DNA of 64,000 nt from Phapecoctavirus DIJ07P2: sequence record OZ035771.1, one strand, 5' to 3'. Each line of letters begins with the position of its first letter. Within the stretch, counting starts at the first letter, position 1. Both the position numbers and the translations under genes were made by a program. Positions 8,638-63,743 of the stretch are shown one piece after another. The notes under the pieces were generated by a model that did not search any database, was not told the origin of the DNA, and saw nothing but the letters and a program-made list of their open reading frames with translations.

Positions 8638-9186
8638 ATGCTGAATGCGGTAGAGTTGGCACCACTGATCCGAATTCTTGTTTATAACCCTTCTCAAGAA
8701 GTATTGCCAGATGCAATGCTGATTCAGATCATCCAAACTTGGATTGATATTATAGGGAATGAAGATAAGGATAAGTGTGCAGTATTGTGGAACAGCTTGA
8801 TTTCTGTTTTAGAGTATCTATGGAACAACGATGTTCTTAACAACAGTACTCAAACAGGAGGAGCTATGTCCCGCAGAGAAAAGATGGGTGAAGTCGAAGT
8901 TGAAGTTAAATTTAACAACGGTCAAGTAACTTATAAGTCTCCGTGGGAAGATATCTATCATAACTATTTAAATGGTCTTATGGTCATTCCTGGATGCACG
9001 GCAGGACGAGGAGCAACCAGTAAAGTTCTTATTGGCGGTGTGGATGCTCGTGAAATTGATCGAGTAAACAGCGATCCTAACTCTGTAAATGGTCTTGGTA
9101 ATGTTGCAAGTGTTGATCGTAATACCCGCAACGTTAATTATTTGCGAAATTACGGACCTGTTTCTTTTTATCGTAGGGACAAATAA
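8638..9186 (+). CDS. hypothetical structural protein (head-tail connector region)
   Basis: 182 aa ORF, tightly packed in the structural operon. Confidence 0.3.
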   Translation: MLNAVELAPLIRILVYNPSQEVLPDAMLIQIIQTWIDIIGNEDKDKCAVLWNSLISVLEYLWNNDVLNNSTQTGGAMSRREKMGEVEVEVKFNNGQVTYKSPWEDIYHNYLNGLMVIPGCTAGRGATSKVLIGGVDAREIDRVNSDPNSVNGLGNVASVDRNTRNVNYLRNYGPVSFYRRDK

Positions 9187-9720: not shown

Positions 9721-10137
9721 GTGTTACTAGATCAATTTACTCTCCTTGATCTAACTGAATACCAAGGTCGTAGACGAGTCTACAAAGAGGCAGTTGGTTC
9801 AGTTATTGCTAACTTAGAAAGTAGTGTAGAATATGAACCATTTACTATTGAAGCGGCAAGCTTACAACCGATATCTGGTAAAACACTGAATGCACTACCT
9901 GAAGGTTACAGATCTAAGGCTCAATATAGTTTCTGGACTAAAACAGAAATGAAGGGGTTACAACAAGGAACAGAACAGTTATCAGATCAGATATTGATAG
10001 ATGGTAAATGGTATTCTGTTTATTCCCTTAAAGATTGGACCAGAACATCTTTCTTAGTCCATCATCACTGTGTTGCGATATTAGACGATCAAAACAACTC
10101 CTGGTCTTATGGAACAGAAGGAGGAAACTTTGGCTAA
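9721..10137 (+). CDS. hypothetical structural protein
   Basis: 138 aa ORF with GTG start after GGAG RBS. Confidence 0.3.
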   Translation: MLLDQFTLLDLTEYQGRRRVYKEAVGSVIANLESSVEYEPFTIEAASLQPISGKTLNALPEGYRSKAQYSFWTKTEMKGLQQGTEQLSDQILIDGKWYSVYSLKDWTRTSFLVHHHCVAILDDQNNSWSYGTEGGNFG

Positions 10138-10768
10138 TATTTACCAACAAATAGAAGCATACGAAAATGCCATCTACTTAAATATAGGTGGCTTCCTTCA
10201 AGAATTAGTGGGGTTGCCAGTCTATGTTATGGATAAGCCATTCATTAAACCGGATACTCCTTACCTAGCACTACGTATTATCACTTCCAGCGATTCTGGA
10301 GGTTGGTCTTACCGAAGCTCTATTCAAAATGATATGTATTCCTACGAGATGGATAATACCTACGAGATTGAACTTGTAGCCTATCGTGGAAGACCTACCA
10401 CTTTGATGAGCTATGTTCTGGCTGCTCTCCGTGGTGCAGAGGAATTAAAATACAAACATCTCTATTCTAAAGGTCTTGGTTTTTTAGGAGCCTCCAATAT
10501 AGCTCAAGCCAATACAATTGTAGACGGAGATAAGACTGAATTAAGAGCGCGTATGGTTATGACGTTCAACACTCGTATGAGTATTGAAGATATTGCTACT
10601 ACACCAATAGAAGCAATCAACATGCACATCCGTTCATTCAGAGATAGTTACAATGATCCTATCCCTTTAGATTTAATTCTAAACAGGGTTTATGCAATTA
10701 CTTTGGTTCCAGGCGAATACTCGTCAGTTAATCAAAATGGATCATTATTTAACAACCCTACCGAATAA
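10109..10768 (+). CDS. hypothetical structural protein (tail completion region); start may be TTG at 10130
   Basis: 219 aa ORF; AGGAGG sits inside the annotated 5' end, 5 nt before an in-frame TTG. Confidence 0.3.
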   Translation: MEQKEETLANIYQQIEAYENAIYLNIGGFLQELVGLPVYVMDKPFIKPDTPYLALRIITSSDSGGWSYRSSIQNDMYSYEMDNTYEIELVAYRGRPTTLMSYVLAALRGAEELKYKHLYSKGLGFLGASNIAQANTIVDGDKTELRARMVMTFNTRMSIEDIATTPIEAINMHIRSFRDSYNDPIPLDLILNRVYAITLVPGEYSSVNQNGSLFNNPTE

Positions 10769-47815: not shown

Positions 47816-48094
47816 TTAAAATGGTTCGTTAGTCTCCATCATATATTCTGCTTCTAGTTCTTCCATGTGCTTTCTAAATTGGAAAGCAATTTCTGCTACA
47901 GTTACATTTAAATCTTTTTCAAAAACTTCTGTAGATCCTTCATAAAAACGAATACCGTCAATTAAAAGCCCTCCGTGGTAATCCCAATCACTTTCACGAG
48001 AAAGCGGATTAGGTTCTTCATAATAGTAATCCACCTCCACAACCAAGGCTTTCCCGTTATGAGTGGTGTATTCAAAATCAAAAGTGTTAATCAT
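47816..48094 (-). CDS. hypothetical protein
   Basis: 92 aa ORF, stop overlaps downstream start. Confidence 0.3.
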   Translation of the reverse strand: MINTFDFEYTTHNGKALVVEVDYYYEEPNPLSRESDWDYHGGLLIDGIRFYEGSTEVFEKDLNVTVAEIAFQFRKHMEELEAEYMMETNEPF

Positions 48095-49038
48095 TATAGC
48101 TCCTCAAATAAAAGTCTACGACGCTCATTCAACACATCAATGTGATAATGAGTCCTGACATACTTAGCTAATGCTAATCCTTTCTCCATGCAAACATCGG
48201 GAGCACTTAATAAGTATTCCGTAATATCTTTCCACTCGGAAGGTGTTTCAGCAAAGAATAACAAATCTTTAAACTCTTGTGTATGATAATTCTCACGAGG
48301 AGAGCAGATTAAAGGTAAACCCTTAGCACCTGCCTCAAGAATTTTAAGATTGCTTTTTGCATTATTAAACACGTTATCGACCAATGGTGCAAGACTGATT
48401 TGATGACCATCGTAAGATTCCATGTAGTTGGCATATGGTCTTACACCTTCATAAACACTAGTTGGTGCTACATTTTCTCTAATTACAGACCATTCACGAC
48501 TACTTAAAACTTCAGAATCCCTACGAAAACCACATATTGTAAGATCTTTACCAAAATCGGGCAAGATAGCCAAATCTTGTTTATGTGTTTCACTTCCAGC
48601 CCAGACTAATGGAGTTTTGGAGTAGCGATCACGGGTCAACACAAATTGACCTTCATCATAAGGAAGTCCATTAGGGATTATGTGCACATTATCATTGTAT
48701 TGTGAAAGTTCAACTTGCAAGGCAGGTGTCGTAGTTGTAACAAGATCACTGTGCTCTAAAAACCATTTTAAATGTTCACGAATACCTGATTCAAAAATAC
48801 CTTCTAACATGTGTCCTTTTGGAATAACTAAAGAGTCATCCAAATCCATAACCATTTTAAAGCCCAGGTTTTTAAGGGCTAAAAAGCCCTCTTTACCTTT
48901 TGTTGGCACTCCGTTAAAAACGAAAACGTTGTGTTTAGGTTGTGAAGAGAACTGCCTTGAGTAAGGCAGCACTACCCTATGGAAATCGCAGACACTATAA
49001 TTGATTCCGTTATGATTGTCAAGAATTATTTGTCCCAT
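48094..49038 (-). CDS. glycosyltransferase-like protein, paralog 1 (GT-B-like C-terminal motif)
   Basis: 314 aa; shares CDxHR.V.P, DLDD, GQF.L..DR.S.TP.VWAG, APLVDN.FNN.KSNLKILEAGAKG.P..CS and HVRTHY blocks with adjacent ORF 49046..50032. Confidence 0.35.
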   Translation of the reverse strand: MGQIILDNHNGINYSVCDFHRVVLPYSRQFSSQPKHNVFVFNGVPTKGKEGFLALKNLGFKMVMDLDDSLVIPKGHMLEGIFESGIREHLKWFLEHSDLVTTTTPALQVELSQYNDNVHIIPNGLPYDEGQFVLTRDRYSKTPLVWAGSETHKQDLAILPDFGKDLTICGFRRDSEVLSSREWSVIRENVAPTSVYEGVRPYANYMESYDGHQISLAPLVDNVFNNAKSNLKILEAGAKGLPLICSPRENYHTQEFKDLLFFAETPSEWKDITEYLLSAPDVCMEKGLALAKYVRTHYHIDVLNERRRLLFEEL

Positions 49039-49045
49039 ACTTCAC

Positions 49046-50032
49046 CTACAAACTTTCAATAACCTGGCGTCGCAATTCGTTTGCATCTGCCAGATTATAA
49101 TGTGTTCGAACATGTTCCGCTAAGAACAAGCCGCGATCTTCCCGATAGTTCGGATTTCGAAGAAGCTTAACAATTTCGTAATGCCATTCTGCTTTATTCT
49201 CTGCATAAGCAACAGCGCGAGCATCTACAGGGTTAAAATAAGGTAATACCTTAGAACAAACAATCGGAATACCTTTTGCCCCAGCTTCAAGGATTTTGAG
49301 ATTACTTTTACAATTATTAAAATCATTATCTACCAAAGGAGCTATAGCAATAGCATGACTTTCGTAAACACTCATGTAATTATCTAAATCTTTTACAGCA
49401 GCTTTATATTTGGCATTTGGTAAATTTCTACGGATTTTAATCCACTCTTGCCCTGTGATACTCTGCGAAGCTTCATACCCCGCAATAGTAAGAAGTTCAT
49501 CATCAAAAGTGTTAGAGACTAGTCGTAAATCGGGTTCGTGACTAGCACCTCCAGCCCATACAATAGGGGTACCGGATGAACGATCATTTGACAAAGTGAA
49601 TTGTCCACTATCAAAAGGAAGTGCATTTCGGATCACAACAACATTCCTATTTAAGTGACGGATCTTATATGCCAAGTATTCCGTAGTCACAATAACCACA
49701 TCAGCAAGCTTAACCATAGCCACAATAGCATGAGTGTTTGACTCGTATAAACTTGCCAAATAATGCTCTGGATTAAGTTGGTAGAAATCATCTAAATCTA
49801 CAACAATCTTAACACCTTGACGTTTCAGGGACAGAACATATTCTGCCCCTTTAGAATGAATACGGTTAAACACGACAACATCTTTCTTAGGCTGAAAATT
49901 ATTGTTGTTAAATGGTACAACAATACGATGATAATCACAACCACTGTGAGGTTTTGCATCAATTTTCAGTTTAGTCCATTTTTTATTTGACATGTGCCAG
50001 TGCCTCCTCATAAGAAATTCGGATTTTCCCAT
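49046..50032 (-). CDS. glycosyltransferase-like protein, paralog 2
   Basis: 328 aa; same conserved blocks as 48094..49038 (tandem paralogs); EAGAKGIPIVCS resembles the GT-B nucleotide-sugar binding segment. Confidence 0.35.
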   Translation of the reverse strand: MGKSEFLMRRHWHMSNKKWTKLKIDAKPHSGCDYHRIVVPFNNNNFQPKKDVVVFNRIHSKGAEYVLSLKRQGVKIVVDLDDFYQLNPEHYLASLYESNTHAIVAMVKLADVVIVTTEYLAYKIRHLNRNVVVIRNALPFDSGQFTLSNDRSSGTPIVWAGGASHEPDLRLVSNTFDDELLTIAGYEASQSITGQEWIKIRRNLPNAKYKAAVKDLDNYMSVYESHAIAIAPLVDNDFNNCKSNLKILEAGAKGIPIVCSKVLPYFNPVDARAVAYAENKAEWHYEIVKLLRNPNYREDRGLFLAEHVRTHYNLADANELRRQVIESL

Positions 50033-50666
50033 TTTTAATATCTTCTAAAGACGCTTTATATTCTTCCCAGTTAATGCCAATAGCAGCTTCTTTCTCTTCT
50101 TTTGTCAGATTAGCAAAAGGCATAGGATTGTTTCCAAAAACATCGTCTGGGTGGATATAAGCCATGATACGAAGTGGACAAGGTATTGCCTGAATACCCT
50201 GATTCAAACCAGCAGCTTTCAAACGGTGTACCCATTCAGCATCTTCAAAACCATAACCGTGAGTGTAAGGGCGGAAATAACCCATCTTCTCAACAACGGC
50301 ACGAGAATACATTGCAAATTGACACATTGCAAGTTCCCAGAGAATAACTTCTCCTTTACTCCCAACAACTTTATCTTTGAAATACTCCGGCATACCAAAG
50401 AAATCCCATCCTCCAGAGACAGCTTGATCTACAAAATATGTTTCCCATCCCTCCATGATTGGGTAGCAATCGTCGTCAAAAATAAACCAATAATCATAAC
50501 CTTCTTCATAAAACTGGTGCATAAGTTCATTCCTGGCGTAAGCTACACCTTTACGATCTGGATCGTTGAATACTCGAAAATCTGCATGTGGATCTGTTAC
50601 AAGATAGTCTTTAAGTGGACGGACACCTACAGTGATAACACCCACTCCGATTTTAATATTTTCCAT
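49983..50666 (-). CDS. GT-A-like glycosyltransferase
   Basis: 227 aa; DxD-type motif FIFDDDCYP and downstream GYGFEDAEW acidic motif typical of GT-A fold enzymes. Confidence 0.4.
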   Translation of the reverse strand: MENIKIGVGVITVGVRPLKDYLVTDPHADFRVFNDPDRKGVAYARNELMHQFYEEGYDYWFIFDDDCYPIMEGWETYFVDQAVSGGWDFFGMPEYFKDKVVGSKGEVILWELAMCQFAMYSRAVVEKMGYFRPYTHGYGFEDAEWVHRLKAAGLNQGIQAIPCPLRIMAYIHPDDVFGNNPMPFANLTKEEKEAAIGINWEEYKASLEDIKNGKIRISYEEALAHVK

Positions 50667-50674
50667 TTTCTCTC

Positions 50675-51238
50675 CTAGATAGTTTTACTGTGATCGTGAC
50701 AGTGTAATAAATGATGTATAGACCGTTGAGGATTTGTTTGACCTAATCTGTAAATGTGAAACAGATACATTCCCCGCATCAATCCTAACCTCTTTCCTTT
50801 TTCATGTAAAGTGCGAGAGAAAATTAGGTCGAATTGGATAGATTTTTCTTCGAAAGGAATTTCATTCCACAATGATTTTCTAAAAAGCAAAAAGAAACCT
50901 GCCAGAGGTGTTCCGAAAGGAACTTCTTCAACACTCACTTTATGATATTCTCTTGCAATCTTAGCATATTCTATATGGTTTAGAATATCTGGATCATCGT
51001 TAATTTGGTTAGAGAAAAGCTGATAACCACTACCTAACCTGTTACAAGTTGCACCTATTACATCAAAAGGCGGGTTTGACATAACAAGCTCTTCAAGCAT
51101 AGATGGTTGATCAGGTAGGAGGAACATTGTATCGGTATCTCTTAAGCACACCCAACTATCATCTGGAAGAACGGCAATAGCTTCATTGATAGCCTTGCCG
51201 ATATTTCCTGTCAGATAGGGAGTAATATAATAAATCAT
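50675..51238 (-). CDS. hypothetical protein, possibly second GT-A-like enzyme
   Basis: 187 aa; CLRDTDTMFL acidic DxD-like motif; same operon as the glycosyltransferase genes. Confidence 0.3.
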   Translation of the reverse strand: MIYYITPYLTGNIGKAINEAIAVLPDDSWVCLRDTDTMFLLPDQPSMLEELVMSNPPFDVIGATCNRLGSGYQLFSNQINDDPDILNHIEYAKIAREYHKVSVEEVPFGTPLAGFFLLFRKSLWNEIPFEEKSIQFDLIFSRTLHEKGKRLGLMRGMYLFHIYRLGQTNPQRSIHHLLHCHDHSKTI

Positions 51239-52562: not shown

Positions 52563-53165
52563 TTATGGACATTCATACCATTCTTTTTTACCACCGAAGG
52601 CCATCACCACATCACAAATATCCAGACCAGCTTTACCTACACCATATGCTTTCAGCTTCCATTCCCCATCTTCACGAACCAAGGAAGCCACGTGGCAGAT
52701 TGTGTTACCAGCTACTTCAGGAGCCAGGAAGTCAAAATCCAGAATTTCCACATTACGCTCGGAGTCGAAGATTTTAAGCATACCTTCAGAAGCATGACCA
52801 AAACGTTTCAGACCTGTATCATCATCAATGGTCAGAACAAAGGCAATCTCTTGTGCATCAGGAGAGATTTTAGCCAGAGTAATATCAATCTGCTCCATGC
52901 TGCCAGTCCCATCACGAACATCGTCACCAGCGAAGGTAGAACGTTCAGGATCAAACTTGTTAGCATAGCAAACCAGATGACGTGCGGACAGCATTTCAGG
53001 ATTGCCAGCGGCATTATGACGACAAACCAGTGCACTTACATCCAGATCCAGTTTAGAATCAGATTTCCAAGAGAATTCCAGGCGCAGTTCTTTCAGAGCC
53101 GGAGCAACTTTCTTCAGGGAAATTTTTTCGCTAGAGCCTTTTTTCAGGGAAATTTTATCAGTCAT
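52563..53165 (-). CDS. terD: TerD-family protein
   Basis: 200 aa; N-terminal duplicated KISLKK motif and overall TerD-like size and acidic pattern (FAGDDVRDGTGS, TIDDDTG); strongly host-optimal codon usage. Confidence 0.75.
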   Translation of the reverse strand: MTDKISLKKGSSEKISLKKVAPALKELRLEFSWKSDSKLDLDVSALVCRHNAAGNPEMLSARHLVCYANKFDPERSTFAGDDVRDGTGSMEQIDITLAKISPDAQEIAFVLTIDDDTGLKRFGHASEGMLKIFDSERNVEILDFDFLAPEVAGNTICHVASLVREDGEWKLKAYGVGKAGLDICDVVMAFGGKKEWYECP

Positions 53166-53180
53166 CTTTTGTCTCCTCTA

Positions 53181-53450
53181 TTATTTAAGTGTAATACCAG
53201 TTACAGTCAATTCTACTTCCAAAAGCTTAGATGTGTTTTGGATTGATACTAATTGTGCATGATGGTTTAGTTCTACAGCAGAATAATCATTTTCCCCATC
53301 ATCTACTTTTAAATAAACAATGATTTCACTAAGGTCTAAACCATTTTCGTCAAATGCATTTTCATAGACGAAAGTATCTCCTACATCCAAATCTTTAATG
53401 GTAAGGCATCGTTTATTTACTTTTTGCTCATCAATTTCGAAGTTTAACAC
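53181..53450 (-). CDS. small protein, paralog B of a duplicated family
   Basis: 89 aa; MLNFEIDEQK...DLDVGDTFVYENAFDENGLD...EVELTVTGITLK aligns with the protein at 54472..54750. Confidence 0.4.
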   Translation of the reverse strand: MLNFEIDEQKVNKRCLTIKDLDVGDTFVYENAFDENGLDLSEIIVYLKVDDGENDYSAVELNHHAQLVSIQNTSKLLEVELTVTGITLK

Positions 53451-53679
53451 TTCTTCCTCCTAATGTTATCTCCGGTTTGTATATACGAAGAATTATAGCA
53501 TTTTCATTTTCTTTGTCAACCCATTCTTCATAATCGGGCCATACATGAATCTCTACTCTACTTACAATATCTTCCATTCGCACAGTCCCAATGAAATACT
53601 CTTTGAGACTGCGCATAATGAAAGCTTCTCTCTCGCGCCAATAATTTTCTACGACTTGAGAGGCAAGCTCGTCGATCAT
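53431..53679 (-). CDS. hypothetical protein
   Basis: 82 aa ORF overlapping neighbours at both ends (translational coupling). Confidence 0.3.
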   Translation of the reverse strand: MIDELASQVVENYWREREAFIMRSLKEYFIGTVRMEDIVSRVEIHVWPDYEEWVDKENENAIILRIYKPEITLGGRSVKLRN

Positions 53680-54470
53680 TTTTTAGCACCTACTTTAACA
53701 ACCCACTCTCCGAACTCTTCAGATAAGAGTTTGTCATAAAGCTCTGAATCTGTCAAGTCTAAATCTTTAATGCCAATAAAACCAACATTATCATAAGCAT
53801 TTGCCAGTTCTTTCAGGAAGCCAAACTTCTCATTACCAACGCCAACCATGAACCAATAAATAGGTTTATTCTTATTCTCTTCAATAAGACGACGAACAGC
53901 ACTAGGATCACCATTCTCACCATCCGTCTGGAAGAATACAACACCAGGGGTAACGTCAGCACCTGGTTCAGATACAGCTACAACTTTTTCACGCTCTACA
54001 GACACTGTTTCAGTTTTACCAAGCAGACGATTAAAGAAGCCTTTCTTTGGAGCCTCCTCTTGTACCACTTGTTTAGTGGTAATATATTTGGTAACAGTGC
54101 CAAAATACTCATCGTAGATATCTGCCATTACAGGGGCGTAATTTGTTCCACCTCCGATACGAACATTGCGCATACATTTACCAACATAGTCATCGTAAAC
54201 GTCTGCTGTTGCTGGAGTAAGCTCTTGGGAACTCGTATTGAAGGCCCACATATCAATTTGTTGATTATCGTCGAACAGCATACCAAAAGGAAGCAGTTTA
54301 CCTACAAAATCACTCACTACCCCACTAGAATATAGGCCATGCATACTACCAGAAATATCTAGAGCACATGCTACACGAAGAACAATCTTACCTTCATTCA
54401 GGTTCTTATTCTTTTTCAGAGAGAAAGCAAGGTTTTCTTGACGTTTTTTCAGGCTGATTTTCTCGGACAT
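53676..54470 (-). CDS. vWA-domain protein with TerD-like N-terminus (TerY-like)
   Basis: 264 aa; N-terminal MSEKISLKK...FSLKK; MIDAS motif VACALDISGSM with downstream T and D residues (GGGTNY, FFQTDGENGD). Confidence 0.65.
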   Translation of the reverse strand: MSEKISLKKRQENLAFSLKKNKNLNEGKIVLRVACALDISGSMHGLYSSGVVSDFVGKLLPFGMLFDDNQQIDMWAFNTSSQELTPATADVYDDYVGKCMRNVRIGGGTNYAPVMADIYDEYFGTVTKYITTKQVVQEEAPKKGFFNRLLGKTETVSVEREKVVAVSEPGADVTPGVVFFQTDGENGDPSAVRRLIEENKNKPIYWFMVGVGNEKFGFLKELANAYDNVGFIGIKDLDLTDSELYDKLLSEEFGEWVVKVGAKK

Positions 54471-54471
54471 A

Positions 54472-54750
54472 TTATTTCTCCTTCTTAAGTGTAATATTGG
54501 TAACTTCTAAATCTACTTCCACCATATTTGTATCTGGCGGGATGCAATGAGTATAGCCTCGTTGTGCTAGTGATCCATTAATACAGATCGCACTGTTTGT
54601 GGAATTTTTAATGAACACCAAGTTACGGTAGGTATCCAACCCTGCGTCTTCATAGGCATCATAATACATGAATGTGTCCCCTATGCCAAGGTCTTCGAAA
54701 GCAATAGGTAAATCCTGACACTTTTCTTCTTGAATATTGAATCTAAACAC
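54472..54750 (-). CDS. small protein, paralog A of the duplicated family
   Basis: GTG start 5 nt after AGGAGG gives MFRFNIQEEK...DLGIGDTFMYYDAYEDAGLD...EVDLEVTNITLKKEK, collinear with 53181..53450. Confidence 0.4.
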   Translation of the reverse strand: MFRFNIQEEKCQDLPIAFEDLGIGDTFMYYDAYEDAGLDTYRNLVFIKNSTNSAICINGSLAQRGYTHCIPPDTNMVEVDLEVTNITLKKEK

Positions 54751-55306
54751 GCATACCTCCTCTACCAATTTTGAAGCCCAAATCGTAAGCTTCCTTAGTG
54801 ATCTTTTGTAACTCACTTATAGAAAGTGTTACAAGAGGATCATCTTCTTCAATTTCCATCTTGTCATCTTCTGTTTCAATGAGAGTATTATGCACTTTGT
54901 GATAAGGGTTGTCAACACGTTTAAACTTATTCTTTTCTGTGCTGAAAAAACAATCTGGATCTTCTTCACCATCACCCCAACCTTGGTTAGGATCTCCGTC
55001 AGATTGTTCTGTAGGGATTTCACCTGTAAAGTACTTTTCCAGCACCATAGCGATACCGTCTCTTGGATTTGAGGAATGCATTAAATCACAAACCTTACCC
55101 CAATCCATAGCCCATTCGAACCGTTCACGAACGCCATTTTCATCCTCCTTTCCAGAGAAAACACAACCATAACTATCATAGTTGCCATACATCTCTTCAA
55201 TAACAACACCATCCTTCAAAAGAAAGAGATAGCAAGGTGATCCGTCGAAAGAAGTAGAAAGGGCAGCTTTGCCCGATTCCTTACACAAAAAGCTAAAACA
55301 ACCCAT
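54743..55306 (-). CDS. hypothetical acidic protein
   Basis: 187 aa ORF; stop overlaps next start. Confidence 0.3.
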   Translation of the reverse strand: MGCFSFLCKESGKAALSTSFDGSPCYLFLLKDGVVIEEMYGNYDSYGCVFSGKEDENGVRERFEWAMDWGKVCDLMHSSNPRDGIAMVLEKYFTGEIPTEQSDGDPNQGWGDGEEDPDCFFSTEKNKFKRVDNPYHKVHNTLIETEDDKMEIEEDDPLVTLSISELQKITKEAYDLGFKIGRGGMRV

Positions 55307-55669: not shown

Positions 55670-55872
55670 TCTTCTTCCTCATTAAATTCCACATCAGAAA
55701 TAACTTTAAATCTACCAAAGTTACGACAACCTTCATAGATATATCCATCACGACAAGCTGCAAAAATATCTGGAGTTTGTAGCTGGGTCATTGGGGCAAA
55801 GCGTTTCTCTTCGTCATAACGAACACCTATTTCTCCAGCTTGTTCGTCAAGCATGTATACACGGATTCTCAT
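55666..55872 (-). CDS. hypothetical small protein
   Basis: 68 aa ORF; start overlaps upstream stop. Confidence 0.25.
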   Translation of the reverse strand: MRIRVYMLDEQAGEIGVRYDEEKRFAPMTQLQTPDIFAACRDGYIYEGCRNFGRFKVISDVEFNEEEE

Positions 55873-56981
55873 TTACCCAACCCCTTCTTAACAGCGTCAA
55901 CCATCCCATCTTCGAGAGATTGAACTTCATTGATATAATCAACACGGGCAGCACGGGCTTCCGTATTGATGCGGTTAGTTTCTTCCAACATCTTAACCAA
56001 GTTTTCCTGATCGTGACGCAGAGTTTCAATATCCAACACTTGACGGTTAGCCAGTGCTGCTGCTTCGATCTGATTCTGTGTGGCAAGATCGCTACCCAGT
56101 TTAATTGCCAGGTTAAATTCATCAAGAACGTTATTCTGTGTCTCTGCGGCTTTCATTTGACGTAAGCTCTCAATATACATTGAGAAGTTAGCAGAGTAAG
56201 CAGGAATAACATTATTTACTATGTTACGCGCAGATCGCATTAAGCTTGCAGAAACTTTTTGCATACCTTGCACACGTGGTCCCATTTGGACACACAGTAG
56301 GCGCAATGCTTTTAAATCCGCAATACGAATCTCCAGAAGATCCAAAGTATCTCGGATCGCTTGTCGCTGTTCTACCGCATCTTCTGGAAGAGCAGCCAAA
56401 GCTTGTTCTTCTTTTTCATAGGTTGCTGTTAGAAGCTGCATATCTCGGTTCAAACTTGCAGCATATTGTCCAATAGCTTGATGTAGCTTTTCAAGATATA
56501 CCAAGGAATCTTCTTCTTTGCGAATATCCATTTGAAGGTTCTTTACCAACTCTTCAATACGGTTATTAACATTATCAAACTCCCCAAACAGGTCTTCTTT
56601 CATACCCATAACTTTTTTAATGAGTTTAGTAATACCTTTGCTTTGTTTAATAGAGTTTGGATCAAGTTGTTTTGCCTGTTTAATCAAAGCTGTGAGTCGT
56701 TCACTCATCTGATCGCCTTGATTACTACGTTGATGTTTTAATACCTCGGCATTCAAGGAACGCAAGGTTGTTCCTGCCTCTGCCCCGATCTCTTCGATCT
56801 CTTGTCGTGTCATAGAAGGTAAAACTGGAACTTCTTGCGGTGCCGCTGGTGCATAAACAGGACTGGCATCTAACACGCTTGGAGCGAATACAGATTTACT
56901 TGCATCTGTTGTTGCAGCAAATACGCTCATTTCAGGTTTCTTCTGACAGCCAGTAGCTGCTTTTAAAAATGGACTTGTCAT
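55869..56981 (-). CDS. TelA-like (toxic anion resistance family) alpha-helical protein
   Basis: 370 aa, predominantly helical/coiled-coil, size and genomic association with TerD/TerC consistent with TelA-type proteins; family assignment from memory, not searched. Confidence 0.4.
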   Translation of the reverse strand: MTSPFLKAATGCQKKPEMSVFAATTDASKSVFAPSVLDASPVYAPAAPQEVPVLPSMTRQEIEEIGAEAGTTLRSLNAEVLKHQRSNQGDQMSERLTALIKQAKQLDPNSIKQSKGITKLIKKVMGMKEDLFGEFDNVNNRIEELVKNLQMDIRKEEDSLVYLEKLHQAIGQYAASLNRDMQLLTATYEKEEQALAALPEDAVEQRQAIRDTLDLLEIRIADLKALRLLCVQMGPRVQGMQKVSASLMRSARNIVNNVIPAYSANFSMYIESLRQMKAAETQNNVLDEFNLAIKLGSDLATQNQIEAAALANRQVLDIETLRHDQENLVKMLEETNRINTEARAARVDYINEVQSLEDGMVDAVKKGLGK

Positions 56982-57568
56982 TCTTCATTCTCCTCTTCTG
57001 CATCTCTTATATATGGTGAAACACCGTACTCTTTAGCTACTTTAACCCAATCGTCCCATTTATACAACCATAATTTTCCTTCGGTCCCTTCTTTATCTGA
57101 TTTCAACCACATATTAGGTTGCTTACCTGGGTACATGCGATTAGGTTTACGATTATAACCTCTAACACATCTTGTCGCAAACCTATCTACCAGAACAAGA
57201 ACATATTTATATTCGTGGTTCAACGGCTCTTTGGAAGTGGCTTTAGGATTAGCCCCTAACTCTGCTGCCAGTTTTTGCCAATGAGCACCGTGTCTACTAA
57301 ACTTACCCATACAACCATCAATAGCATGAGCAATTTCGTGCTTCATTGTATCCACGATCATATCTCTTGTAGAGTTCTTATGCAAGTGCCAATTTACAAC
57401 AACAATTTTATCTCGGTAATTGCACCAACCAAAAGAGTTATTCACTTTGTTTCTAACGCAAGCTTTATATCCTGCTTCACGTAACATGTTGTAGTAAACA
57501 GGAAAATCTTCTTTTATTTCCTGCATCACTTCCCACCACAAGAGTTGCAAGTCTCTCTCGGTATGCAT
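56978..57568 (-). CDS. SprT-like zinc metallopeptidase
   Basis: 196 aa; HEIAHAIDG (HExxH) zinc-binding motif in a SprT-like context; basic C-terminal region. Confidence 0.45.
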   Translation of the reverse strand: MHTERDLQLLWWEVMQEIKEDFPVYYNMLREAGYKACVRNKVNNSFGWCNYRDKIVVVNWHLHKNSTRDMIVDTMKHEIAHAIDGCMGKFSRHGAHWQKLAAELGANPKATSKEPLNHEYKYVLVLVDRFATRCVRGYNRKPNRMYPGKQPNMWLKSDKEGTEGKLWLYKWDDWVKVAKEYGVSPYIRDAEEENEE

Positions 57569-58179: not shown

Positions 58180-58617
58180 TTAACGTCGCTTGCTACGAGA
58201 TGAACTCTTTTTACTTAAAGGGCTATTGTAAGATTTACGAGTTGTATAGCTACTATTTGTTTTAAAAGTTTGTCTCGGCTTTTCATAAGTTTTTGTCTCT
58301 TGTTTAGGCTTACCATAAAAATTAGTTTTCGGTTTAGGTGTATTATAATGCTTATTAATAATCGTTCTGTTATCGTTATAATCCCCGCCACTACGATTAC
58401 TACCACCGCTCATCATATGCCCTAACAACATACCTGTAGCAAACTCACCAACACCGCTACTACTAGAACCGCCACCATTGTTGATAATAGTTGTATCTCC
58501 ATCAGATCCTTGTTGGGCGTATTGTTGAGGAGGTTGTTGGTATTGTGCAGGATTTGTTTCATCCTCGCAAGCTGTTAAAAAGATACAACCAATTAAAATC
58601 AGGGCTAGTTTTTTCAT
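58180..58617 (-). CDS. Gly-rich basic lipoprotein
   Basis: Start at internal ATG after GAGGA RBS; signal peptide MKKLALILIGCIFLTAC with lipobox; Q/G/S-rich then K/R-rich C-terminus. Confidence 0.4.
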   Translation of the reverse strand: MKKLALILIGCIFLTACEDETNPAQYQQPPQQYAQQGSDGDTTIINNGGGSSSSGVGEFATGMLLGHMMSGGSNRSGGDYNDNRTIINKHYNTPKPKTNFYGKPKQETKTYEKPRQTFKTNSSYTTRKSYNSPLSKKSSSRSKRR

Positions 58618-58804
58618 ATTTGCTTTCCTCATTTTGACTATTAATACATCTGTGTTTGAAATCTCCAGAGAAGCAATAAATTTGCTCTCCATCTCGGTAT
58701 AAACTCACTTTACTGCCGTTGATTACGCTTGTCAATACAAAAATTACAACAAACAACCCTATTGCAAAACAGATATTTTCAAACACAACCAACAAGTATT
58801 TCAT
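58559..58804 (-). CDS. small membrane protein (uncertain; overlaps lipoprotein gene start)
   Basis: 81 aa with N-terminal TM helix ICFAIGLFVVIFVLTSVI; overlaps 58180..58617 by about 58 nt. Confidence 0.2.
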   Translation of the reverse strand: MKYLLVVFENICFAIGLFVVIFVLTSVINGSKVSLYRDGEQIYCFSGDFKHRCINSQNEESKYEKTSPDFNWLYLFNSLRG

Positions 58805-59193: not shown

Positions 59194-60168
59194 TTAAACA
59201 GCAGCTTCTTCTTTTTCAGGGAAGATAAAGCTTGCAATAACACCAAGAGCTAATGTGCCTAGAACAATCATCAGACTTACGTTAGGGGAAATATCATGCG
59301 GGAGGAATGACCACTTGGCATGAAGTGTTTCACCGAACGGGTGATACATAAGTTTAGCACCGACAAACACCAGAACCACAGCAACAGCTTTCTCTAAGTG
59401 AACCAGATATTTCACAGCTACACTTAACACAAAGAAAAGTGCACGTAAACCAAGAACAGCCATCAACATTGCAGAATAAACTAGCAGAGGTTCTTGTGTC
59501 ACACCGATCACAGCCGGAACTGAATCAAAAGAGAAGACAATATCTGTAAGCTCAATTACAAACACACAAAGAAGAGCAGGAGTTGCATATTTAATACCAT
59601 TCTTAATGGTAATGAACTTTTCACCATCCAGTGCATTGTGCACAGGCAGAACTTTACCTACTAAACGAACAGCCCAATGCTTAGAGTAATCAATATCCTC
59701 TTCTTCGTCACCACCTTTGATGATAGCCACGGCAGACCAAGCTACAATCAAACCGAACAACACTTGGACCGACCAATGAAGGTTAAACAAAGCGGTCCCT
59801 GCTGCAACAAAAATACCTCGGAAGACAATGGCTCCTGCAATCCCCCAAAGTAGAATCTTATGTTGGAGATGTGTGCTCTTAATTCCAAAGCTTGCAAAAA
59901 TTGCCATGAACACCATTAGGTTATCTACAGAAAGACTCTTTTCCAACACATAGCCACTTAGGAAAAGCGCGGCAAACTCTTTACCATGTTCTACCCAAAT
60001 GAATGCGTAATACCCTAAAGCTAAAGCAATCCAAAAAACAGACCAAAGCAAAGCAGATTTAATTCCAATTTCTTTATTCTCTTTATGACCAAAGAAATCG
60101 ATACCAATAGACAATGCTAAAATACCAACTAAAACAACTACATCAATAATTGGGAAACCGAGTTGCAT
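59194..60168 (-). CDS. terC: TerC-family integral membrane protein
   Basis: 324 aa; multiple TM helices; signature YVLEKSLSVDNLMVF and second DxxFxxDSVPA-type segment (DIVFSFDSVPAVIG) typical of TerC family. Confidence 0.8.
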   Translation of the reverse strand: MQLGFPIIDVVVLVGILALSIGIDFFGHKENKEIGIKSALLWSVFWIALALGYYAFIWVEHGKEFAALFLSGYVLEKSLSVDNLMVFMAIFASFGIKSTHLQHKILLWGIAGAIVFRGIFVAAGTALFNLHWSVQVLFGLIVAWSAVAIIKGGDEEEDIDYSKHWAVRLVGKVLPVHNALDGEKFITIKNGIKYATPALLCVFVIELTDIVFSFDSVPAVIGVTQEPLLVYSAMLMAVLGLRALFFVLSVAVKYLVHLEKAVAVVLVFVGAKLMYHPFGETLHAKWSFLPHDISPNVSLMIVLGTLALGVIASFIFPEKEEAAV

Positions 60169-60481: not shown

Positions 60482-60955
60482 TTAAAGTTTATAAATAGTC
60501 ACATCGTGACCTGTTTTTACTAAAGTTTCTTCAATCATCACTTGGATGATAGCCCAATTACCTCCGGCATGTCCCGCTCCAATCATAGGTAAACCGATCT
60601 TACATTTTTGGTCACGGAGAAGCAAATCATTAGCCATAGCTATTAGTGCATCGTAAAGTGCATCATAGTCCAACTGACGACCTTTACTATTGTATCCATA
60701 ACGATACTGTCCATAAAGGTTGTATACCATAGGGTTAGGATAATCTTCTGGTTCCCCTAAACTAAAAGAACCAAGCTTTTTCTGGTTTCCTGCTCCTGTA
60801 GCTAAATCTGCTTCGTATGCATATGGAAACGCATATTTTATTTGTGGGGCAATACCTGCCCCCATATTACACATACAGTTGCAACAATGAGCAATAACAG
60901 TTACTTCACCTGCTTTAGCGGCATCAATAAGATTACCTGTTTTCATTTTAAGCAT
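60482..60955 (-). CDS. macro domain protein (TARG1/OARD1-like ADP-ribose hydrolase fold)
   Basis: Start at ATG after AAGGAG (MLKMKTGN...); VIAHCCNCMCNMGAGIA and GLPMIGAGHAGGNW...DVTIYKL parallel the TARG1-type macro pattern (HCIS.DC.MGAGIA ... RIGCGLD ... ITVYTL). Confidence 0.6.
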   Translation of the reverse strand: MLKMKTGNLIDAAKAGEVTVIAHCCNCMCNMGAGIAPQIKYAFPYAYEADLATGAGNQKKLGSFSLGEPEDYPNPMVYNLYGQYRYGYNSKGRQLDYDALYDALIAMANDLLLRDQKCKIGLPMIGAGHAGGNWAIIQVMIEETLVKTGHDVTIYKL

Positions 60956-60968
60956 TTTTAGCTCCTTA

Positions 60969-61796
60969 TTACAGAATGTGTTGTTTTGTGTAACGATCCA
61001 AGAATTCAAAGTTTTCAGCATACTTTGAAATTCGGTTGTAACCTTCTCCCAAGCATCCAAAGAAAAGTTGCTCTACATAGTAGTGTGGCAATTGACTAAG
61101 AATGATTTTGAAGTCTTCATGATTTTGGCCCATAAGATATTTAATAGGACGAACAAGACACTGTGCATCACGTTCTTCATTAATCATTTTAACAAACGCT
61201 TCTGGTGTATTAATGTAGTTAAAATTCAGTTTAGCTTCGGTATCTGCTTGATTACCTTCATATTTTGCAAAATACAGGAAGTAAACATCATTTTTAACTT
61301 GATTTTCATCAAGGATCTCAATCAGTTTGTCTTCATGCGTTCCAGTGATATTTACATCATCAATGAATACAAGCTTCTTATCACCCCAGAATTCTTTGTT
61401 ACAGTAGAATGTATCCCCATCAATAAGTTTCTTACGACTAGCTTTATCCAAGAAGCCATAATCGTTAATATAGCTAACTTTACGATGAATAATATCCAGT
61501 TCTGCTGAACGACCTTGATTATATTGTGATTGCAACATGTTAAAGTAATTAATAAAATGATCTGTCATCATTGTTGCAGCATTATGCACATGGTTGTAAG
61601 GAGAAGGAATGATAACAAATTGTTCCCCAATATGTTTCATTGCCACTTGAGCAAAAAACTGAAGTGCCAATTCTTTACCCATACGACGCGCGGCTTGGTT
61701 ACTACCAAATTTCAATTTTGAATAATCTTGGATATCAAAAGTAGCAGTTTCCAGGTCATCAAATTTATTTGCAAAAATTTGAGTTTGATTACGCAT
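60969..61796 (-). CDS. type I phosphoribosyltransferase (PRTase)
   Basis: 275 aa; PRPP-binding loop KLVFIDDVNITGTHEDKL (hydrophobic-DD-hydrophobic-TGxT); start overlaps HAD gene stop. Confidence 0.55.
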   Translation of the reverse strand: MRNQTQIFANKFDDLETATFDIQDYSKLKFGSNQAARRMGKELALQFFAQVAMKHIGEQFVIIPSPYNHVHNAATMMTDHFINYFNMLQSQYNQGRSAELDIIHRKVSYINDYGFLDKASRKKLIDGDTFYCNKEFWGDKKLVFIDDVNITGTHEDKLIEILDENQVKNDVYFLYFAKYEGNQADTEAKLNFNYINTPEAFVKMINEERDAQCLVRPIKYLMGQNHEDFKIILSQLPHYYVEQLFFGCLGEGYNRISKYAENFEFLDRYTKQHIL

Positions 61797-62445
61797 TTAC
61801 AATTTCTCCTCTTTTAAGTTTCTCTAGTAAGTCGTTAGGGTTCTTAATATGACAGAAGTTAAATCCTAAGTCAACACATTTTCCATCATATTCTTCACTA
61901 TCGCCTACGTGCAATACTTCGTGCCCTAACAGAGGGATCGGAGAATATGTGAGCGTGCGAGCAAAGAATCGCGGATCTGGTTTACAAAGTAAAGCTTCAT
62001 CCGAGAAATGGGTGAACTCAAAACAATTCCAACTATCAAACTTACAAGCACGACGCAGGATATCCCCTGATATAAAGTTGGTATTGCTCTTAATACTCAA
62101 ATCATAACGTCCCGAAAGATACAGCAAGTACATCGGCAGATCCACGGCTACGTGTGGTGGAAACTTAAGGAACCACTGTTCACACTCGAAACGAAGCTTT
62201 GCAGACTTCCAAGGTGTTATCCCAAGTTCAGAACCAAGTCTTTCCCAGGCGTATGCTGCACACTCGGCTTTGCCTTGAAGTGCTGCATTATCCAGTTCCT
62301 TTTTGATCTTCTTATAAGCTGCTCTTGCTTCCACTTCCGTAATATCTCCATATTTTGCGATAGTCCAGGCTCGCATGTCTGCGTAATTGGAGTTTGCTGT
62401 GATCAGTGTGTTCCATACATCAAAAGAGATATGTTTAATAGTCAT
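61789..62445 (-). CDS. HAD-superfamily hydrolase (atypical motif I)
   Basis: 218 aa; motif I ISFDVWNTL (second Asp replaced), motif III CKPDPRFF, motif IV LHVGDSEEYD. Confidence 0.55.
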   Translation of the reverse strand: MTIKHISFDVWNTLITANSNYADMRAWTIAKYGDITEVEARAAYKKIKKELDNAALQGKAECAAYAWERLGSELGITPWKSAKLRFECEQWFLKFPPHVAVDLPMYLLYLSGRYDLSIKSNTNFISGDILRRACKFDSWNCFEFTHFSDEALLCKPDPRFFARTLTYSPIPLLGHEVLHVGDSEEYDGKCVDLGFNFCHIKNPNDLLEKLKRGEIVNA

Positions 62446-62446
62446 A

Positions 62447-63052
62447 TTAAGCCCACCATGCGTCTAAGTTAAGATTACTGTCCACTACCACTTGTTCTAT
62501 GTGGTAGCCTTTTATCTGTATCCCACTGTTCAAGAGCATATCATACGCTTCATTGAAACGCAACTTATCTTCTGCGGAATATAAGCGAGCATTATAAAAT
62601 CGGTAATCAATTTCTTCAGCATTAGAAGAAATACGGAAGAAGTTTGTTTCTACTTCGGGATCACTTGCTGAAGTCTTAATGTGAACTTCTCCATAATTTT
62701 CTTTACTTAGATCCATGAAAAGAACACAGGCAACATGTTTAAACATTCGTTCCAGTTTGTAACGAACAACATTGAAACCTGCATTCTCAAGTTTTTCTAC
62801 ACACTGCAACATTAAAGTAGTGTCGAGATCGCTTTGATACTTTGTTAACATACGATCACGTTGAGACTTTGTATCCCGATGTAAATCAATTGTTGTGCAT
62901 TTGGCACCAATAATCTTAGCTGCTTTCATCAACTCTTCAGAACTAACGTTAGATAAAGTAAGATGAAAATGGGCTTTCCACACTTTTTTAGCAGGGACAC
63001 CAAAAGATTTATCCCCATTATTCGGCATGTTGACTACTACACTATGTTGCAT
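62447..63052 (-). CDS. hypothetical protein; weak resemblance to 2H phosphoesterase (HxT motif)
   Basis: 201 aa; AHFHLTLSN contains an H-x-T-x motif but the second motif is not convincing. Confidence 0.25.
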   Translation of the reverse strand: MQHSVVVNMPNNGDKSFGVPAKKVWKAHFHLTLSNVSSEELMKAAKIIGAKCTTIDLHRDTKSQRDRMLTKYQSDLDTTLMLQCVEKLENAGFNVVRYKLERMFKHVACVLFMDLSKENYGEVHIKTSASDPEVETNFFRISSNAEEIDYRFYNARLYSAEDKLRFNEAYDMLLNSGIQIKGYHIEQVVVDSNLNLDAWWA

Positions 63053-63067
63053 TACTTATCTCCTCAC

Positions 63068-63292
63068 TTAAAATGGAAGTCTTTGAAGTTCATCTCCTCC
63101 GATATCAAGTAATTTAGCAACATCTCGATCAGAAAGCAACTCTTTTCTTTGTAAAATATCCACAAGGGTTGCAAGAATCTCCTTAACGTCCCGATCACTG
63201 TTCTTCAACAGTTCTCCTGCCGTCCCTACTCTATCTCCTACAGCAAAATATGTAACCATGAAACCTCCTAAGTTAATCTGATTGCCAACCAC
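63068..63292 (-). CDS. hypothetical small protein
   Basis: 74 aa ORF overlapping nrdG stop. Confidence 0.25.
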   Translation of the reverse strand: MVGNQINLGGFMVTYFAVGDRVGTAGELLKNSDRDVKEILATLVDILQRKELLSDRDVAKLLDIGGDELQRLPF

Positions 63293-63743
63293 TTGCCGTT
63301 TTGGTCCATAATCTTTGATTATCTGACCCTCTGAAAGGTTTTGTAGTTGGATTGTTTATTTCATACTTTCCGTCTACAATAATGTCAACAAGATTTTTAA
63401 TATATAAAGGCACTTCCTCAAAAGTATATCCTGTATACACCATTATATCTTTGCTTGACCCATAAACGTCTCTAACCTTTTCTATAAGGCTTTTAACATT
63501 GTAAATATTCTGCGGATCTAATGGTTCTCCTCCTAAAATTGTTAAACCTTTTACAAACGGTCTTGACAAATCTTTTAAAACTTGCTCTACATTTTCGTGA
63601 GTAAACGGTTTCCCGTAAGAATAAGACCAGGCTTTTTGGTTAAAACAGCCACGACAACCGTGGCTACAACCACTAACCCAGAGGGAGCACCTAACTCCCT
63701 CGCCATTAATAAGATCTACAGGTTCATATCCTGCAAAATTCAA
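63273..63743 (-). CDS. nrdG: anaerobic ribonucleotide reductase activating protein (radical SAM)
   Basis: 156 aa; radical-SAM cysteine cluster CSHGCRGCFN near N-terminus; immediately downstream of nrdD-like fragment. Confidence 0.75.
   Translation of the reverse strand: MNFAGYEPVDLINGEGVRCSLWVSGCSHGCRGCFNQKAWSYSYGKPFTHENVEQVLKDLSRPFVKGLTILGGEPLDPQNIYNVKSLIEKVRDVYGSSKDIMVYTGYTFEEVPLYIKNLVDIIVDGKYEINNPTTKPFRGSDNQRLWTKTASGWQSD

Follow-up and report, generated by a model that had tools for sequence, protein, structure and literature searches.

Two small genes intercalated in a Ter (tellurite-resistance-type) gene cluster of Phapecoctavirus DIJ07P2 encode proteins, here called copy A and copy B, that sequence comparison identifies as true, old and strongly diverged paralogs. 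They lie in a 64,000-nucleotide stretch of sequence record OZ035771.1, which was analysed throughout and is referred to below as the window; copy A is encoded directly upstream of the gene for a TerF-type vWA protein, and copy B directly upstream of the gene for TerD. The distribution of the family among related loci points to duplication of the small gene alone, and its synteny suggests that its members may serve the Ter module as accessory subunits or adaptors. Taken as a whole, this explanation (paralogy, duplication of the small gene by itself, accessory or adaptor role) seems to us evenly poised between right and wrong; its descriptive and evolutionary part is considerably firmer, and we hold that part with high confidence. 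Ter clusters are common in bacteria, plasmids and phages, and their mechanism is poorly understood; phage-encoded Ter systems were reportedly described in 2012 by Anantharaman, Iyer and Aravind.

Two small genes directly upstream of the vWA and TerD genes

Both genes are on the minus strand, copy A (small1; 92 amino acids (aa), net charge -7) at 54472..54750 and copy B (small2; 89 aa, net charge -11) at 53181..53450. The stop codon of copy A lies 1 nucleotide (nt) before the vWA gene (53676..54470, minus strand, 264 aa), and that of copy B lies 15 nt before the TerD gene (52563..53165, minus strand, 200 aa). Copy A starts with GTG at 54750, has a GGAGG ribosome-binding site (RBS) 5 nt before the start, and overlaps by 8 nt the stop of an upstream gene for a 187-aa protein; on its sequence, it reads as translationally coupled to the TerF-type vWA gene that follows it. 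The start of copy B is likewise a GTG, at 53450, with AGGAGG in front. A longer version of copy A starting at 54816 was considered and rejected: the PHROGs family phrog_11278 covers only residues 24-114 of that 114-aa open reading frame (ORF), beginning at the 54750 start.

The two proteins align without a gap over their whole length with 28 of 89 residues identical (31%; BLASTP E=2e-13), and their Smith-Waterman score of 124 compares with 25.7 ± 4.4 (maximum 50) in 2000 shuffles (z=22). Both match phrog_11278 from end to end, copy A at 1.8e-48 and copy B at 7e-45. The first-pass annotation of this DNA had described the two as collinear paralogs, each directly preceding a gene whose product starts with KISLKK, and had named shuffled controls as the check; the alignment, its controls and the gene positions all bear this out, and the motifs that it quoted (M-F/L-x-F, DLxxGDTF, GLD and EVxLxVTxITLK) are conserved columns of the family alignment. 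Its description of tandem modules stands for the two pairs of small gene and ISLKK gene and does not strictly hold for their adjacency, as an 82-aa ORF (53431-53679) sits between the vWA gene and copy B.

The most invariant columns of the small family are acidic and glycine loop motifs (G-D/E-T-F and G-L-D). The family is acidic throughout, with net charges from -2 to -11; a charge of +5 is carried both by residues 1-28 of the vWA protein and by those of TerD. No member has a match in Pfam, NCBIfam or PADLOC or a significant sequence match in the PDB, and a second PHROG, phrog_7832, is matched weakly by the family (6e-4). Since phrog_11278 (PHROGs v4, function uncharacterised) takes in both small proteins, their paralogy was already implicit there; PHROGs lists no function, fold or context for it, and the link to vWA and TerD, the two clades described below and the fold prediction are new here.

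Several features adjoin these genes or concern their annotation. The 187-aa protein encoded upstream of copy A (54743-55306, minus strand; phrog_14928; no Pfam match; N-terminal sequence MGCFSFLCKESG) is conserved in Phapecoctavirus and in phi92 (L002, 4445-5008). In one metagenomic protein, P0009, the first 20 residues of this 187-aa protein are joined to the C-terminal end of copy A, a joint that probably arose by deletion or misassembly. A 16-nt inverted repeat (54055-54070 and 54824-54839; 94% complementary, arms 753 nt apart) lies across copy A and part of the vWA gene and is probably due to chance. In Escherichia phage EF1-1 (L001; locus coordinates 8780-9049 and 10071-10268), the ortholog of copy B is annotated 'RNA ligase', a label supported by no search.

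Distribution of the family and duplication of the small gene

When 1.84 billion representative proteins were searched exhaustively with HMMER, no more than about 14 genuine clusters were recovered, with members of 54-93 aa and two of the clusters being fragments. The same search returned giant repeat proteins; the seven that were checked contained domains of unrelated types (He_PIG, DUF11, ankyrin or HYR) and matched repeatedly over short segments, and these matches were discarded as spurious. Word-index protein searches with copy B or with an alignment of the two paralogs found only close Phapecoctavirus-like relatives, and a scan of viral_contigs with an alignment (A1) confirmed no relative. 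The small-family hidden Markov model built here found homologs in 12 further loci, and a degenerate DNA pattern run against genome and metagenome collections yielded 32 matches, five of them true members, all on phage-like contigs, and the remainder due to chance.

The gene order around these homologs varies in a limited way. The arrangement of the window, A-vWA-82aa-B-TerD, is found also in phiWec179, L010 and L012; phi92 and Klebsiella phage 05F01 have A-vWA-TerD; and in more distant loci, where the small gene is denoted S, we find vWA-S-TerD (L005 and L009), vWA-S'-S-TerD (L006/L007) and S-TerD (L008). In all recovered loci, a small gene is followed after 0-35 nt by vWA, TerD or another small copy. 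The co-occurrence that the first-pass annotation had proposed as a check is thus seen in every locus in which the small family was recovered, and the conclusion that the family is phage-restricted and linked to the vWA/TerD pair is well supported at the level of sequence. When the profile of the family was compared by hhalign with those of TerD, of vWA and of an unrelated family of about 110 aa discussed below, nothing was found (probability <1%); the idea that the small protein is a degenerate TerD fragment was dropped on the same result for the TerD profile.

In a neighbor-joining tree, the copies preceding vWA (among them copy A of the window, phi92 gp174 and the 05F01 protein) all fall into one clade, A (bootstrap 82), and the Phapecoctavirus-type copies preceding TerD form a second, B (bootstrap 63); distant copies preceding TerD lie outside both. 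The number of small genes in relatives ranges from zero to two, and their slots differ, which argues that the small gene alone was duplicated, a conclusion that is well supported; the event is placed before the split of Phapecoctavirus and Justusliebigvirus. In the simplest history, an ancestor would have had the order vWA-S-TerD; the small gene alone would then have doubled, with A placed ahead of vWA and B ahead of TerD; phi92- and 05F01-like phages would later have lost B, while Tr1-like phages have neither copy; and a second pair (S' and S) is found between vWA and TerD in the separate metagenomic lineage of L006.

The two junctions themselves share direct DNA repeats (D1 and D2) of 37-39 nt that are 76-77% identical, about 1300 nt apart, and reach from the end of the small gene across the RBS into the beginning of the gene that follows. 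They are accounted for by conserved codons and the RBS. The serine codon of ISLKK is AGC in one of the downstream genes and TCC in the other, which argues against a shared DNA ancestry of the junction, and a recent duplication of the junction at the DNA level was rejected on this ground.

An 82-aa ORF and candidate promoters

The 82-aa ORF (53431..53679, minus strand) belongs to phrog_22387, of uncharacterised function, and has no match in Pfam, NCBIfam or PADLOC. It is confined to phages with the order A-vWA-82aa-B-TerD, and its 3' part holds a candidate promoter for copy B and TerD: a perfect sigma-70 consensus (TTGACA-16 nt-TATAAT, with an extended -10 TG) at 53492..53519 on the minus strand, which precedes copy B by 42 nt. 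This is the sole perfect match in the window, where 0.04 would be expected by chance, and it is kept at the same position in all five related 82aa-B-TerD loci (L001, L003, L010, L011 and L012), even though identity among their B proteins is no more than 46-48%. Copy B and TerD thus look, by their sequence, like a separate, strongly expressed unit. A second candidate, a sigma-70-like promoter by its match to the consensus only (TTGACA-17-CATAAT, 11 of 12 consensus positions), lies at 54887..54915 on the minus strand, inside the 187-aa gene and 137 nt upstream of copy A; phi92 (L002) and L012 have these hexamers at an equal distance. In most other loci, the small gene or TerD is preceded by weaker promoter-like sites.

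The N-terminus shared by the vWA and TerD proteins

Both partner genes encode products that start M-[ST]-[ED]-K-I-S-L-K-K, and among the ORFs of 60 aa or more in all six frames of the window these two alone contain [ILV]SLKK. The TerD protein (N-terminal sequence ISLKKGSSEKISLKK) scores 98.9 bits against PF02342 (cut-off 25.3; E=3.2e-28) over residues 5-179 and aligns from residue 5 with the solved Klebsiella TerD, 2KXT/2KXV (1.5e-15). We take the TerD family to be a Ca-binding beta-sandwich family; the segment AGDDVRDGTGSMEQ of the phage protein aligns to GDNRTGEGDGDDES of 2KXT and is a candidate for a Ca2+-binding acidic loop of the GDxxxGxGxGDDE type. The vWA protein scores 130.1 bits against PF10138 (cut-off 29.4; 1.6e-37) and has the metal-ion-dependent adhesion site (MIDAS) motif in the form DISGSM, with D-I-S-G-S at residues 38-42; no solved relative was found for it by sequence.

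In TerD, ISLKK...SLKK aligns to residues 3-20 of Klebsiella TerD 2KXT (VSLSKGG--NVSLSKTAPSMK) and, by this alignment, is the canonical first hairpin, with which the TerD domain begins. Residues 1-30 of the vWA protein form an ISLKK...FSLKK extension that lies outside the Pfam vWA-TerF-like model, whose match starts at residue 31. The pattern (I/V)xLxK-x(3-7)-(I/V)xLxK is kept in nearly all of 54 standalone vWA homologs, down to 25-38% identity, among them a Neobacillus homolog (MTVIDLTKKAKIVLEKK). We propose this N-terminal extension, absent from the Pfam model, as a feature of the vWA-TerF-like family; the vWA protein of the window has it.

A profile of the vWA N-terminal extensions aligns to the N-terminus of the TerD profile (hhalign P=2.3e-5, score 28.2), and none of 200 column shuffles reached this score (mean 9.7 ± 2.3, maximum 17.6). 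The similarity between the vWA and TerD proteins ends after about 20-29 N-terminal residues (BLASTP E 0.013-0.11). On its own, the N-terminal 35-mer of vWA is below the reach of the Pfam TerD model, and that of TerD matches the model weakly (E=0.088), as expected for queries so short. A further line of evidence comes from four fusions of TerD and vWA (P0068-P0071, with PF02342 and PF10138), in which the linker, at about residues 175-215, holds two copies of (I/V)xLxK...(I/V)xLxK, the first followed by a TerD-like 'TAPP-L'; this supports a TerD-derived or TerD-like vWA N-extension. The fusions combine the same two domains that the phage encodes in adjacent genes; in the phage, these are separate polypeptides, vWA and then TerD, and the fusions have no counterpart of the small protein. 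Together the sequences suggest that the vWA extension is a vestige or a mimic of the start of the TerD domain, and they identify the N-terminus common to vWA and TerD as real, old and family-wide. Because the motif is found throughout the vWA-TerF-like family and in phages without a small gene, the shared N-terminus is not a product of local duplication.

Predicted structure of the small proteins

The AlphaFold2 model of copy B, made with an alignment of 20 sequences, is a confident one and has eight strands and one helix (pLDDT 88.3, pTM 0.80), in agreement with the beta-rich protein of the first-pass annotation; with only 8 aligned sequences the pLDDT was 47 and the model unusable, so that the structure described here is that from the larger alignment. 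The small proteins are predicted to be compact beta-barrels of SH3-like topology with an N-terminal hairpin. This predicted topology is reminiscent of SH3-like small beta-barrels such as the SH3-like domain of ribosomal L2, the C-terminal domain of DtxR/IdeR, FeoA, and Tudor, PWWP and KOW domains, with fold scores that are all weak, and a Foldseek search of the model against the PDB gave nothing significant.

A possible accessory role and its alternatives

We favour the reading in which a membrane-associated TerD/vWA/TelA/TerC module has the small proteins as accessory subunits or adaptors, specific to certain lineages and dispensable. They would be co-expressed with TerD, vWA or both and, as the synteny suggests, would probably bind them, with copies A and B specialised for the two partners and tuning the assembly or activity of the module. 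The binding or adaptor mechanism, which draws on gene order, is put forward tentatively, as something we consider possible and would not yet call probable. The small protein may be a dedicated partner of the TerD-type N-terminal segment, as the first-pass annotation proposed, but it is unlikely to be an obligate one, since close relatives do without the small gene: many phage Ter clusters with the same N-termini lack the family, which thus is not required for TerD or vWA function, and the loci that lack it while keeping the motifs intact include a Neobacillus genomic contig. Co-occurrence wherever TerD, vWA or the motif is found is therefore not the pattern observed.

The alternative that survives best, although we consider it unlikely, places the small proteins in the Ter pathway without direct binding to the hairpins or to TerD and vWA. 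They might, for instance, be small sensors that bind a ligand, a nucleotide or a metal, or they might act as sponges for a nucleoside-like signal, which the neighbouring PRTase, HAD and Macro enzymes are thought to make. Such a role would fit the strict synteny with Ter genes, the conservation of the acidic and glycine loop motifs as the most invariant part of the family, and the presence of PRTase_3, Macro and HAD genes in the same cluster. It is opposed by the searches of Pfam, NCBIfam, PADLOC and the PDB, in which the sequences matched no ligand-binding family that has been characterised, and by the uniformly weak fold scores, and also by position, as the small genes adjoin vWA and TerD rather than the biosynthetic genes about 7 kb away.

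A number of observations weigh against any specific role, and with it against the accessory reading that we prefer. The small family is absent, with the vWA and TerD N-termini intact, from L013, L015, L016, KP13-16, phiPsa374 and Citrobacter phage Tr1, and among GenBank phages a small gene occurs in 126 records and a vWA homolog in 209. In other phages the same slots are taken by proteins of an unrelated family (about 110 aa; MKFLIIYENxPETT...VVVTGF; L013:4653-4985, L014:5744-6094 and L017:2648-2980), preceding vWA in L013 and Klebsiella phage KP13-16 and lying between vWA and TerD in L014, so that the slot may simply tolerate accessory genes. In BFVD the predicted fold recurs in many uncharacterised proteins of 70-90 aa from a wide range of other phages (TM 0.55-0.79), in a comparison that covered structure only. 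Finally, copy A is frameshifted in the deposited EF1-1 genome (L001), where it is broken into a 69-aa and a 52-aa fragment, through a sequencing error or because it is a pseudogene.

Most of these also speak for the alternative that the small genes are generic, exchangeable phage genes in a permissive, promoter-proximal slot with no specific Ter role, as do the weak phrog_7832 match and the fact that L015, which like Tr1 lacks the family, has the same vWA-TerD order. We nonetheless regard such a generic occupancy as improbable. Every recovered member (about 14 clusters in at least 12 distinct loci) is beside vWA, TerD or both and nowhere else; the position has been kept despite divergence to 22-36% identity and two independent duplications; and the spacing from stop to start is tight, at 1-35 nt.

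The accessory reading can be taken further, to a specific mechanism that we offer as a long shot. The acidic, SH3-like small proteins would clamp or chaperone the basic hairpin of TerD type (ISLKK...SLKK) in a paralog-specific way, with copy A holding the hairpin of vWA and copy B that of TerD. In this way they would time the assembly of TerD with vWA, through the TerD-like hairpin of the latter, into a membrane-proximal Ter complex.

The weakest alternative concerns the duplication and is that of the first-pass annotation, in which a small gene and a gene with a TerD-type N-terminus were doubled in tandem as a two-gene cassette, after which a vWA domain was gained or kept by one of the downstream genes; this is very improbable and largely refuted, for although there are two pairs of small gene and ISLKK gene, direct repeats at both junctions, a vWA N-extension that is statistically TerD-like, and TerD-vWA fusions, the small genes are paralogous whereas vWA and TerD are alike over just those 20-29 N-terminal residues and unrelated beyond, the vWA motif is family-wide (including the Neobacillus contig and phages without a small gene) and predates the locus, relatives have zero, one or two small genes in differing slots (one in the distant vWA-S-TerD loci and in the A-vWA-TerD order of phi92 and 05F01), and the junction repeats, with their differing serine codons, are explained by conserved codons and the RBS.

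The surrounding Ter cluster

The 3-kb region around the small genes is 98.5-98.9% identical in DNA sequence to many genomes of Phapecoctavirus (phAPEC8-like, Stephanstirmvirinae) coliphages, which identifies the source phage as a Phapecoctavirus. In the Ter cluster of this phAPEC8-like coliphage, the region is the end that encodes TerD and vWA. One related record, 'Acinetobacter phage vB_AbaM_ABPW7', is 98.6% identical to the window; this record and those of 'Campylobacter phage A110a/A145/A150' are phi92-like or phAPEC8-like coliphage sequences, and their host labels look doubtful.

From about 40 kb on, all genes are carried by the minus strand, and the Pfam matches among the proteins of the window (TerD, vWA-TerF-like, TelA, SprT-like, TerC, PRTase_3, Macro and HAD) fall into one minus-strand block. 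Upstream of the genes described above are those for TelA (55869-56981), a SprT-like protein (56978-57568) and TerC (59194-60168). Directly upstream of TerC, at 60482-63052, are genes for Macro (60482-61060), PRTase_3 (ComF-like; 60969-61796), a HAD-like hydrolase with a weak Pfam match (61789-62445) and a second, HAD-like hydrolase with no Pfam match, whose EF1-1 counterpart is annotated 'hydrolase' (62447-63052). These genes are the 'nucleoside-like metabolite' arm of Ter systems, and beyond them, at 63273-63743, is a radical SAM gene resembling the activase of anaerobic ribonucleotide reductase (RNR). Between TerC and SprT, a 170-aa ORF (58180-58692, minus strand) starts with a hydrophobic stretch like that of a signal peptide or lipoprotein (LALILIGCIFLTAC); the remainder is low-complexity and rich in Q, G, S and K, and no family match was found. 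On the other side, TerD is followed by a gene for a SleB-type endolysin and, downstream of this, by four consecutive predicted glycosyltransferase genes (48094-51238, minus strand; annotation from EF1-1), of which those at 48094-49038 and 49046-50032 look mutually paralogous.

Ter systems with the components of the window are known from phages (PMC7824862; PMC8386662), and have been noted in jumbo phages and in some smaller tailed phages related to them (Iyer et al., 2021; PMC7824862); the framework of the present finding is thus already known. The window shares with the phage-encoded systems of that account TerD, a TerF-type vWA protein, TelA, TerC and the PRTase and HAD enzymes, and differs in the one or two extra genes for proteins of about 90 aa intercalated beside vWA and TerD, of which the part of Iyer et al. 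(2021; PMC7824862) that describes Ter systems makes no mention.

Implications for Ter systems

Should the small proteins indeed hold the hairpins of vWA and TerD, they would constitute a previously unrecognised regulatory layer of Ter systems; apart from that, the finding is an annotation-level refinement of, and a modest addition to, a known system. The mimicry of the first TerD hairpin by the vWA N-extension suggests a route by which separate TerD and vWA proteins might dock, a side result that may prove the more general one. A phage-restricted family that travels with TerD and a TerF-type vWA protein, has been duplicated twice and comes with a conserved promoter also offers a cheap experimental handle, one that could reveal the way in which TerD and vWA come together and the purpose that Ter genes serve in phages.

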